In this document: positions 49,195-63,594 of the stretch, piece by piece | How positions within the stretch are numbered: the first letter of the stretch is position 1 | Layout: every line of letters starts with the position of its first letter | Source of the DNA: Promethearchaeota archaeon | GTDB lineage: Archaea > Asgardarchaeota > Heimdallarchaeia > Hodarchaeales > Hodarchaeaceae | Reading direction: 5' to 3' | Assembly: GCA_048938105.1 (NCBI GenBank) | Contig: JBHLMN010000003.1 | Coordinates: 329,994-393,993 of the forward strand | Length of the DNA: 64,000 nucleotides | Program-made: the position numbers and the translations under genes | Notes under the pieces: model-generated | Databases searched by the model: none | Told to the model about the DNA's origin: nothing | What the model saw: only the letters and a program-made list of their open reading frames with translations

Positions 49195-49503
49195 CTACCC
49201 AGCTGTTGATGCTAATATTTCCAAGAGTAGCCTAACAGAAAAACCAATTACCAACATCACAAAACCATACCCAAAGCAGATGAGGAACACAGGTAAGAAC
49301 GCATCAGATTGTGTTACATCCAAGATGAGATTTGTAGGAAAGTAAGATAAAACTGCAGCTCCAATAACAGCAATTAAAATTGAACCACCAATAAAAATTA
49401 TTATTTCTACAATTGTTAATGGTTCATCTTTGGGATCTATTTCGGTTTCTTGGGTACCATCCGTTATTTTTGGTGTTTTATCATTATCGTTCATAAGAAT
49501 CAT
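49195..49503 (-). CDS. small two-TM hypothetical membrane protein
   Basis: Acidic N-terminus and two hydrophobic helices. Likely start is ATG 49503 or 49494; the ORF-track start at 49518 lies inside the IS-end hairpin. Confidence 0.6.
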   Translation of the reverse strand: MILMNDNDKTPKITDGTQETEIDPKDEPLTIVEIIIFIGGSILIAVIGAAVLSYFPTNLILDVTQSDAFLPVFLICFGYGFVMLVIGFSVRLLLEILASTAG

Positions 49504-49920
49504 CGCAAGGAAACCCACTACTTTAGTGGTGGGAGGAATTACGAGTAATAGGGAGAGAGGTGGTTCTCACACCGTTAGACGAGTAACCATACTCTCGGAA
49601 TTAATTAAATTGATATTGATTTTAAATTTTCCTAGTTATTGTTTGAAAGCGGTCTAAAACCTTTTTAAATGTGTTTTATGGACAAAACAATTGGCATCCC
49701 TGAGATCCATCTTATTGTATAAGGCAATAAGGTAAGGCACTCACCTATTTGTAGGTGAGAGAGACGGTTGAAGCGATCTTGTCAAGCGATGCACTTTACA
49801 CCTATCGCATAATGGTATATCCGTTTTGCGGAGGCTGTCCGTCAATCAGCCTAATGTAGCGGTACTCTACCCCTGTAGTTGCTAGCTACAAGCCAGCGAA
49901 TTGATTCGGTGGTAATTGAC
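49504..49920 (+). mobile_element. non-autonomous IS200/IS605-family remnant (end hairpins plus omegaRNA-like scaffold, no tnpA/tnpB)
   Basis: Left-end-type hairpin CGCAAGGAAA-CCCACTACTTTAGTGGTGGG-AGGAATTACG (49504-49543); second end-like hairpin CTCACCTA-TTTG-TAGGTGAG (49740-49759); right-end hairpin CCAGCGAATTGATTCGGTGG (49893-49912) followed by terminal TTGAC (49920). Left boundary approximate. Confidence 0.7.
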
Positions 49921-49940
49921 ATCTACTATTCATCCTGCCT
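49825..49940 (+). ncRNA. putative TnpB omegaRNA (reRNA) scaffold plus guide
   Basis: AGGCTG-tccGTCAAT-CAGCCT hairpin whose loop GTCAAT (49841-46) complements ATTGAC (49915-20), a pseudoknot; TGTAGC/GCTACA stem; right-end hairpin. Guide would start ATCTACTATTCATCCTGCC. Confidence 0.6.
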
Positions 49941-50101
49941 TTTTTCTTTTTCTCATTATTTTAATTCTAGGTAAATGATTTGGAAATATAGTATTAAGTG
50001 ATTATCATTTCTATTAAGTTCTTTAATAACCATTCTGTGCTACAAAGTTTGTTCGATATTTTTTAGGATGTATGAAATTGTGGAAATAAGAGAGATAAAT
50101 C

Positions 50102-50824
50102 ATGATCTACAAAGAAAATCTTGAACTGGCGCTAGAAAATGTTGGACGTTATGAACAATACAAATTTATAAGAGCGTGGGGGATTGTCAGTATAATCGTA
50201 GGGTTGACAAGGTTTTTCTTGGCCTTTATCATCGAAATTTTCTTAACCTGGTTTGTTATTCGTGATCTGTTTAATTTTTCAAGATCTGGTGCAATTTTTT
50301 TGGGATTCTTGAAATCGTTCATTCAAGTTTTTACTCTCATTTTATTAGCTATCATATTCTTCTATAGCTATATTTCTGTAAGAAAGACCATTTTTACAGA
50401 AAATCAACTAATTTCTCAACGAATAATTAATCTTGGTTTAGCTTTGATAATTTTATATTTATTTGTATTTGTTTTCAGAATTCCTGGGAGTACATATCGA
50501 ATAGACTTCATAGGTGTCCTTCTTTGTTATTTTTTGCTTAATAGAAGAACAGAAAATGATTTTAAGGAATTATTATATCAAGGAATTACCCTTTTCCTTG
50601 TTCTAGCTTTTAATTTTGTCTGGCAATTTATTTACATCCTCACTTTTTTGAATTTCAATATTGATATGCCACGTAGTTCAAACGATTTAGCCATTCCAGT
50701 CTTTATGCTCTCTTATTTTATTATAAATTTCGCTATAGCTGCGATTTATGTTGGAACTGGATATTTGTTAATAAAAAAGGCATCGAGAGTTTTGGAAGGA
50801 GAAAATGATTCTTCAAGGGTTTGA
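50102..50824 (+). CDS. multi-pass membrane hypothetical protein
   Basis: ~6 hydrophobic segments; overlaps the downstream wHTH gene. Confidence 0.75.
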   Translation: MIYKENLELALENVGRYEQYKFIRAWGIVSIIVGLTRFFLAFIIEIFLTWFVIRDLFNFSRSGAIFLGFLKSFIQVFTLILLAIIFFYSYISVRKTIFTENQLISQRIINLGLALIILYLFVFVFRIPGSTYRIDFIGVLLCYFLLNRRTENDFKELLYQGITLFLVLAFNFVWQFIYILTFLNFNIDMPRSSNDLAIPVFMLSYFIINFAIAAIYVGTGYLLIKKASRVLEGENDSSRV

Positions 50825-62432: not shown

Positions 62433-63594
62433 CTAAATGATCAGAGGGATTGAATAACGTCTGAATAATGGGACCATACCAATGATAGTAATTGACCAAA
62501 TTACGAGCAGCATTCAAATCACGATCAATTCTAAGGCCACATAATGGGCACACGTATGTTCTATCTTTAAGCTTCAAACCAGTGTGATAGCATAAACAAT
62601 TGGAACAAAGCTTAGACGAGGGAAAGAAACGATTAACAATGACAAGTTGTGAACCATACCAGGAGGTTTTATACTGAAGTAGGCGCTGAAACTCGCCATG
62701 AGCCAAATCCTGCCAATATTTGGATTGCTTTTTATTCATCGATAGACCTTTTACATGCAAATCCTCTACTATTAACACGCTGTGGTTTTTAGCTAGTGTT
62801 AATGAAATTTTATGTAAAAAATCGTGTCGAGAATCGGTAATCCGTTTGTAAAACCGAGCTAATTTAAGGGCTGATTTTTGACGGTTCTTCGAGCCATATT
62901 TTTTTCGTGAATGAGCTTTTGATAGCCGCCGAAGCTTTTTTAACCGACGCAAAAGGAATTTGGGGGTAGGAAGTGGCATCCCATTGGAGAGGACCCCAAA
63001 CCGCGATAGACCCGCATCTAGGCCTAAGATTTCTCCTTGAATTGGGTGCGGATCAGGCCGAGTCTCTTCTACCGTAGCTGAGACATACCACCTATCAGCG
63101 GTACGAGAAACAGTCACATTCAAAATCCGCCCATTAACAGGAATGGCTGGCCTTTCCTCTAGTCGCAATTTGCCTAATCGAGGTAAACGGATTAGTTTCA
63201 GCTTTGGATAGAACCGAATTACCCCAGTCAACCGAAAGCTGTCTTTACTTTTGTTTTTTTTCTTGAATTGAGGAAAACCAACTTTTCTTCCTTTTTTCCG
63301 CCCATTGACAAAATTTTTAAACGCCTGGTCCAGATCACGTAATGCCTCTTGGGGAATGCATTTACTATAGTTGTACATCCAGCTAAAAGTCGTCTTTTTC
63401 AAACGGTTGATCTCTTTATGTTGTTTCATGGCATCAGTAAACCGTTCACTACCAGTGTTGTGTTTATATTGTGCCAACCGTTGAGCTAAACCCCAATTCC
63501 AGCTAAAACGAGACGTACCAGCACATTGATTGAGTAAAGTGCGTTCTTTATTGTTAACTCGTAGCGCGTATTTGTACCCTCGTTTTATTAGCAT
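62344..63594 (-). CDS. tnpB: TnpB RNA-guided endonuclease
   Basis: N-terminal helix region (GTSRFSWNWGL), AFKNF..FPQFKKK, RuvC-I GLDAG, RuvC-II VEDL, zinc finger CSNC/CPLC, RuvC-III DRDLNAARN; true start ATG 63594. Confidence 0.93.
   Translation of the reverse strand: MLIKRGYKYALRVNNKERTLLNQCAGTSRFSWNWGLAQRLAQYKHNTGSERFTDAMKQHKEINRLKKTTFSWMYNYSKCIPQEALRDLDQAFKNFVNGRKKGRKVGFPQFKKKNKSKDSFRLTGVIRFYPKLKLIRLPRLGKLRLEERPAIPVNGRILNVTVSRTADRWYVSATVEETRPDPHPIQGEILGLDAGLSRFGVLSNGMPLPTPKFLLRRLKKLRRLSKAHSRKKYGSKNRQKSALKLARFYKRITDSRHDFLHKISLTLAKNHSVLIVEDLHVKGLSMNKKQSKYWQDLAHGEFQRLLQYKTSWYGSQLVIVNRFFPSSKLCSNCLCYHTGLKLKDRTYVCPLCGLRIDRDLNAARNLVNYYHWYGPIIQTLFNPSDHLVAVSSSETLNACGESVRPSASGPDFMNQE

Follow-up and report, generated by a model that had tools for sequence, protein, structure and literature searches.

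A protein-less IS200/IS605-type element with a TnpB omegaRNA-like scaffold in an archaeon of the Hodarchaeales

Introduction

Palindrome-associated protein-less derivatives of IS200/IS605 elements, PATEs, were first named in Haloquadratum (PMC3119063). They 'often encode omegaRNAs', with TnpB acting in trans (Meers et al., 2023, PMC10055086). A second group are the standalone omegaRNAs of Altae-Tran et al. (2021). In the summary given in PMC10691335 these are loci without effector and transposase which work in trans. The principle, i.e., protein-less elements which carry omegaRNAs for a TnpB supplied in trans, is already published.

The element described here shares much with PATEs. It has no gene, and the hairpins at its left (LE) and right ends (RE) are common to relatives which bear TnpB or TnpA. 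It is inserted beside a fixed motif without duplication, it has an omegaRNA-like scaffold at its right end, and transposase and TnpB would have to act in trans. What appears to distinguish it is a new host lineage, an Asgard archaeon, a conserved promoter-like (TATA-like) box of its own and an extra 5' module of ~100 nt, covarying and apparently derived from tnpB. A description of such a box or module in PATEs was not found in the literature. As in the standalone omegaRNAs, to the extent that the summary covers them, a mobilised omegaRNA locus resides in a genome which also holds effector loci. Here, however, the scaffold lacks one stem-loop of the resident elements and its helices are re-paired.

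The third comparison concerns the IS1341-type elements and ISDra2, the latter compared by description. The parents of the element are likewise TnpB-only, with the TAM at the left junction and an intact RuvC D-E-D triad. The omegaRNA overlaps the tnpB 3' end, stops at the transposon boundary and has a loop complementary to the 3' tail. In contrast to these systems the element has no tnpB, and its TAM is TTCAT. Subterminal hairpins, insertion at a fixed motif, Y1-bearing relatives and the lack of an internal gene place it with IS200/IS605; homology to tnpB 3' ends up to the boundary and a covarying secondary structure are those of a TnpB omegaRNA. We consider it probable, at about 0.75, that this is a non-autonomous, protein-less member of the IS200/IS605 type (IS605/IS1341-like) in Hodarchaeales which provides a guide RNA for TnpB in trans.

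The locus and its boundaries

The window, i.e., the whole stretch of 64,000 nucleotides analysed, corresponds to positions 329994-393993 of contig C14 in a 99%-complete genome of 5.85 Mb and ~33% G+C. The gap between a minus-strand ORF ending at 49494 and a plus-strand ORF starting at 50102 contains a G+C-richer island (43-50% compared to 25-35% in the surroundings). An earlier note, made from the window sequence, had proposed at this site a protein-less IS200/IS605-type element with an omegaRNA-like scaffold. All the features which it listed for the site are present in the sequence, and the ends, the scaffold homology and an empty site agree with the proposal. The features, with their present coordinates, are as follows.

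49195..49494, minus strand: neighbour gene, an ORF for a predicted small membrane protein of 99 aa, 96% identical in the sister genome G003
49490..49494, plus strand: TTCAT, TAM and insertion target, present at left junctions and kept in the G003 empty site
49495..49920, plus strand: the whole protein-less element, from the G003 empty site and colinear copies at other sites
49495..49545, plus strand: left end with subterminal hairpin 49514-49533, from nhmmer profile and by-eye alignment
49553..49596, plus strand: second, longer LE-proximal hairpin upstream of the promoter-like box, from 8 copies
49642..49669, plus strand: conserved promoter-like block, BRE-like at 49654-49661 and TATA-like TTTTTAAA at 49662-49669
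49694..49792, plus strand: 5' RNA module, closed by helix P1/P2 and containing two hairpins plus a single-stranded junction that is conserved
49794..49920, plus strand: omegaRNA-like 3' scaffold, identical with the right end, from homology to tnpB 3' ends and covariation
49806-49815/49821-49830, 49832-49837/49847-49852 and 49855-49860/49885-49890, plus strand: scaffold helices
49841-49846 (GTCAAT) with 49915-49920 (ATTGAC), plus strand: candidate pseudoknot, from complementarity
49893..49912, plus strand: RE hairpin, recovered in the covarying alignment
49921..49940, plus strand: guide-sized right flank, of which the same 19 nt directly follow TTCAT in the G003 empty site
49938..49955, plus strand: T-rich tract in the host flank, a candidate archaeal terminator read from the sequence

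A permissive Rfam scan at the site and a scan of the whole window at gathering thresholds yielded no known RNA family, and ARAGORN yielded no tRNA. The element contains no ORF of 44 aa or more; the longest has 43 aa and none is common to all copies. A terminal inverted repeat was not found in the element. The ATG at 49678 (MDKTIGIP) was considered as a remnant of a TnpB N-terminus and rejected; it is unconserved in other copies and deleted in the copy from G014.

The boundaries are set by an empty-site allele. Window positions 49195-50824 were used as query against 40 relatives. On contig C167 of G003 query positions 1-301 (96% identity) meet positions 727-1628 (93%) at one base. In a three-way alignment G003 has TTCAT and then directly the sequence which follows ATTGAC in the window. 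One A at this junction can be assigned to either end; because the following base varies among family members in the family alignments, the right end was set after ATTGAC. The element thus comprises 426 bp on the plus strand without target duplication. Its left boundary moves from the previously assumed 49504 to 49495, and the implied right end at 49920 is borne out by the junction. The expectation that an empty site would fix the boundaries was justified, yet the TAM is TTCAT and not the left flank ending in AATCAT which had been given earlier. This motif stands at 11 of 14 left junctions, i.e., 6 of 7 in short copies, with TTTAT in the remaining one, and 5 of 7 in full-length copies.

A guide which matches the original flanking DNA had also been predicted, and the empty site of G003 does carry the guide-sized flank beside the TAM. 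The right flanks of other copies bear no relation to one another. The T-rich tract is pre-existing intergenic DNA in G003 and is missing from most other copies; its position beside the element is a chance of the insertion site.

Left end and promoter-like block

The LE hairpin, recognised as a left-end type in the earlier note, is 91% paired in 8 copies, with two compensated pairs. The second, longer hairpin is conserved in part. Over 8 copies 74% of its cells are paired and both sides have changed in 5 of 14 pairs, whereas the inner CTC/GAG portion of the original description is not kept. A profile search found no counterpart of this hairpin in full-length elements. There is a 13-nt direct repeat, 85% identical, between 49553-49565 and 49757-49769. 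One repeat copy lies in the LE-proximal hairpin, the other one is the junction motif of the 5' RNA module.

Outside the RNA regions no stretch is as well conserved in the nine copies as the block at 49642-49669. It is nearly invariant, including the BRE/TATA-like sequence pointed out before, whereas the surrounding AT-rich DNA varies. The TATA-like box is positioned ~25 nt upstream of a structured RNA region of ~230 nt. Consensus resemblance and conservation suggest that the block is a promoter. In the G014 copy (L029:1134-1547) 14 nt, corresponding to window 49671-49684, are deleted downstream of the TATA-like box and ahead of the RNA module, which would shift the predicted transcription start into helix P1.

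Resident TnpB elements and the transposase

Window positions 49800-49924 match three other sites in the genome, each of which overlaps the 3' end of an ORF of 386-405 aa. These are the resident TnpB genes.

C4, 157812-159029
C39, 66837-68054
C14, 229306-230472

The proteins have OrfB_IS605 and Cas12f1-like_TNB domains, and their closest solved relatives by sequence are Cas12f-like or TnpB-like chains. The RuvC residues are kept (GVDRG, VLEN and ADLNAARN for RuvC I-III, D-E-D), as are two CxxC pairs of a zinc finger. A parental tnpB, for which the earlier note had suggested a search of the genome, is thereby at hand: these three genes share homology with window 49794-49920 in their 3' end plus right end. 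The last 13 bases are identical in all four sequences, i.e., the element and the three tnpB loci, which diverge afterwards. Over ~1.4 kb, starting ~210 nt upstream of the probable ATG, the copies on C4 and C39 share 91% identity. LE and RE of full-length copies are ~1.4 kb apart, a space which accommodates no more than tnpB, and as read from their sequences the C4 and C39 copies are TnpB-only elements. The aCas1-associated TnpB elements of Asgard archaea, by comparison, have a large Cas1-like gene beside tnpB.

When an nhmmer profile of the short copies is run on full-length elements only two areas match, the right ~140 nt (E 1e-17 to 1e-20) and the left ~60 nt (E 7e-9 to 0.03). An alignment by eye of short and full-length left ends shows the same blocks around the hairpin. 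Homology of the element to the termini of the three intact TnpB-only elements accordingly covers ~60 nt on the left and ~130 nt on the right.

Remnants of a Y1 transposase (Y1_Tnp, PF01797) adjoin tnpB genes of the family in G012 and G017 in divergent orientation. One is a 99-aa fragment, the other one has an internal TGA.

L042:1420-1716 (G012, contig C99), Y1 remnant
L041:1241-1540 (G017, contig C178), Y1 remnant

A Y1 transposase was not found in the 99%-complete genome of the window, and an intact TnpA of the family was not seen in 21 genomes of the genus. As the genome has no Y1 transposase the element probably is stranded, i.e., immobile, in its present host. The distances from cleavage site to hairpin foot, ~20 nt on the left and ~8 nt on the right, resemble the geometry of IS608.

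The window has another TnpB-like coding region at 62488-63138 on the minus strand. Over 226 aa it shares 26% identity with the TnpB of the family, in line with the earlier view that the cognate TnpB must lie outside of the window. Presumably this is the IS607-type element mentioned in the earlier note. An assignment of the present element to IS607 found no backing: the covariance model of the scaffold, R2, has no match at 62488-63138, and the partner of the family is a Y1 TnpA.

The 3' scaffold

Ten short and ten full-length right ends were aligned, with five helices and a candidate pseudoknot. In these 20 sequences 92% of cells are paired compared to 23-41% for slid partners. Changes on both sides are present in 15 of 37 pairs, and the observed covariation was reached by none of 500 shuffles. 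Three structures proposed initially, the stems 49832-37/49847-52 and 49855-60/49885-90 and the hairpin 49893-49912, all were recovered and covary. With covariance model R2 the window copy scores 134 bits, the same as full-length copies. The predicted fold of RNA 49690-49940 has a z of -3.2 against shuffles.

In helices 1 and 2 nearly every pair differs between the short and full-length families while pairing is kept, and in the full-length genes this stretch is coding. A stem-loop of ~28 nt is present in all full-length scaffolds and missing from the short family; hence, it seems dispensable. Together the missing loop and the differing helices 1 and 2 speak against taking compatibility with the resident TnpBs for granted.

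The complementarity of the loop GTCAAT to the last six bases ATTGAC, noticed at the outset, shows no variation in 19-20 of 20 sequences. A candidate pseudoknot agrees with it, and for the very reason of this invariance covariation neither supports nor contradicts the pairing. ATTGAC is also the cleavage-site end of the transposon, and for full-length copies an alternative upstream partner is predicted. The pseudoknot and the RE hairpin either do not vary or are also required by TnpA in DNA form, and their conservation may therefore partly serve transposition. For full-length copies RNAalifold predicted no structured 5' domain in the stretch immediately upstream of the scaffold.

The 5' RNA module

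The short copies possess a second structured region. In nine of them the 29 pairs of the 5' module are 91% paired, compared to 33-47% in slid controls, and eight pairs are double-changed. The module contains AAGGCAC (49734-40), the hairpin 49740-59 and GAGAGAGACGGTT (49757-69). The hairpin, a perfect 8-bp stem previously called end-like, is not a transposon end but helix 4 of this covarying module. Rfam has no match for the module, and its covariance model, R1, identified no other copy in the genome or in the full-length loci.

A different picture emerges at the level of motifs. AAGGCAC and GAGAGAGACGGTT, the most conserved motifs of the module, flank the hairpin and occur colinearly within the tnpB coding sequence, at CDS nt 686-743 in C4 and ~340 nt upstream of the classical scaffold. 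The spacing is a constant 58 nt in all 13 full-length relatives examined, one of which has a TnpB of only 34% identity. Convincing matches to the composite motif in the whole genome are confined to this element and the three tnpB genes. Synonymous codon identity along tnpB peaks at the motif site (0.80 compared to a mean of 0.58; 0.67-0.74 in the omegaRNA overlap), in a rough computation with ten usable, mutually related sequences. The hairpin between the motifs pairs in most full-length genes; because it is broken in two copies it is not established there.

Judged by motif order, spacing and codon identity the 5' module is derived from an internal tnpB segment that shows constraint at the nucleotide level. 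It is a tentative, rather doubtful extension that in this TnpB lineage a second, distal module belongs to the guide RNA, which the gene-less elements kept and fused to the 3' scaffold behind their own promoter. If true, the gene-less elements would be compact guide-only units with a transcription of their own, under selection for competition over TnpB, and a functional RNA element would be hidden in the bridge-helix-coding part of tnpB.

Gene-less sibling copies

Sibling copies, which the note had suggested to look for, exist in related genomes and in metagenomes. At least nine further protein-less copies are located at different sites, seven near-complete and two fragments, with 68-85% identity to the window copy. 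Copies which are colinear and 404-430 bp long are present in G014, in G005 (two) and on marine-sediment metagenome contigs; G007 has a diverged gene-less copy, and two further copies are partial. The flanks of the gene-less copies all differ from each other. In the genome of the window nhmmer profiles and R1 found no second copy of the family, apart from a left-half fragment on contig C52. Empty sites for the insertions of other genomes were not found in the window's genome, where the flanks are ~70-75% identical and non-colinear.

A local deletion of a resident tnpB was considered as the origin of the element and rejected, since the middle ~240 nt have no counterpart in full-length elements except for two short motifs. 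For the same reason we regard the short copies as an old, separately evolving mobile lineage of non-autonomous elements.

A further protein-less element of 358 bp occurs in another genus of the same class (L064:1265-1622; G075, contig C54). At least five copies with 99% identity are present, including L070, L077 and two more contigs. Like the present element it follows TTCAT; the internal motif pair is the same and the scaffold is related. By its sequence this looks like a recently active mini-element family.

The neighbouring gene

The 99-aa protein has no Pfam match. The true ATG of its gene is at 49494-49492, which is the reverse complement of the last three TAM bases, and in G003 this ATG adjoins uninterrupted intergenic DNA. 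The earlier statement that the element abuts the start codon therefore stands, whereas the codon position, derived from a gene at 49195-49503, does not; the ATG at 49503 is inside the element and is not the start of the neighbour. The insertion places 426 bp between the gene and its former upstream region. RNA-guided regulation of the neighbour, which had been suggested, found no support: in the occupied allele 426 bp separate the TAM from the target, and a second guide target with an adjoining TTCAT was not found in the whole genome.

In three of seven short copies the insertion point coincides with the ATG of a divergent gene, here for the 99-aa protein (window 49490-49494), in the other two cases for proteins of 211 and 146 aa (left flanks of L029, i.e., G014 contig C436, and of L040). 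Insertion at an ATG follows from TTCAT being the reverse complement of ATGAA. Among full-length copies start-codon insertion was seen in none of five. In view of 3 of 7 short but 0 of 5 full-length copies we do not take start-codon targeting as a property of the family.

Discussion

How might such an element persist? Driven by the TATA-like box a transcript of ~250 nt would extend beyond the right end, and the ~16-20 nt of flank which it includes would constitute the guide. TnpB from the sibling elements on C4, C39 and C14 may load this RNA in trans. The complex would then cut empty-site alleles flanked by TTCAT, of which the first 19 nt match the flank exactly, and homologous repair would restore the element, i.e., a homing or retention process. 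The same role has been proposed for PATEs (PMC10055086) and standalone omegaRNAs (PMC10691335). Movement, on the other hand, would require a Y1 TnpA in trans. Several observations speak against this reading. The scaffold differs from the resident ones, and the conservation of pseudoknot and RE hairpin may partly serve transposition. Moreover, the element is a single copy in its genome, a Y1 transposase is missing, and the G014 copy has a deletion beside the TATA box.

The last three observations are compatible with an inert relic, a decaying transposon of which the RNA is not made or not used and of which the conservation reflects recent descent and the requirements of a transposase for single-stranded DNA. 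Pseudoknot and RE hairpin fit as well, since neither has independent RNA-specific covariation. Yet, in copies only 68-85% identical, helices far from the ends stay paired via double changes, the TATA-like block remains almost invariant while neighbouring AT-rich DNA drifts, and the architecture is kept in the distant 358-bp family of another genus. We consider a relic rather unlikely. Even less probable is that the RNA acts without the TnpB nuclease, as a regulator, an antisense RNA or a TnpB decoy, or that the element is a mobile promoter or insulator. The three short copies at an ATG, which displace the promoter of the divergent gene, would agree with this, as would the C52 left half with its promoter block directly upstream of a 426-aa gene and a 5' module which has no described function. 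However, nuclease-competent TnpBs have a homologous scaffold, the fold of which is kept here, and the guide is positioned exactly as in omegaRNAs. Further, the number of start-codon insertions is about what is expected from non-disruptive TTCAT sites, with none in five full-length copies, and the genome has no second TAM-flanked target.

Finally, the extra middle hairpins (49553-96 and 49740-59) and the 13-nt direct repeat 49553-65/49757-69 could be taken to indicate two nested or abutting minimal elements, the former of which had been contemplated in the earlier note, or an internal deletion which a resident tnpB underwent once. But in the empty site the 426 bp are missing as a single unit, colinearity extends over the full length of all copies, and the middle ~240 nt, short motifs excepted, are not those of the resident elements. 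Such a composite or deletion origin is highly improbable.

When taken as a non-autonomous guide-RNA element the locus is an Asgard example of TnpB homing logic, in which TAM, ends, scaffold, guide and empty site can all be read from the DNA. TTCAT plus the 19-nt flank is a ready-made target for three intact, compact archaeal TnpBs (386-405 aa). The gene-less copies amount to a natural deletion experiment on an omegaRNA, in which the ~28-nt stem-loop and 340 nt of coding sequence appear dispensable, while two short motifs from the middle of tnpB are kept; this may be of use in minimising guide scaffolds. It also raises the question whether the tnpB mRNA carries a second functional RNA element.

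Fragments and tandem ends

The metagenome contig Ga0114925_10082598 has tandem right ends (L037:1230-1514). A short-type scaffold fragment (1230-1322) is followed 45 nt on by a full-type scaffold plus a C-terminal tnpB remnant (1350-1514).

The left half of a short-type element is located in the genome of the window (G000) on contig C52, 256609-256775, minus strand (L008:1501-1667). It comprises the LE, the second hairpin, the spacer and the same promoter block, and it ends at the TATA box. Directly downstream is the gene for the 426-aa protein, which has weak LAGLIDADG_3 and HTH matches. Homologues of this gene in seven other genomes are without the left half. As read from this arrangement the truncated element may have donated a promoter.
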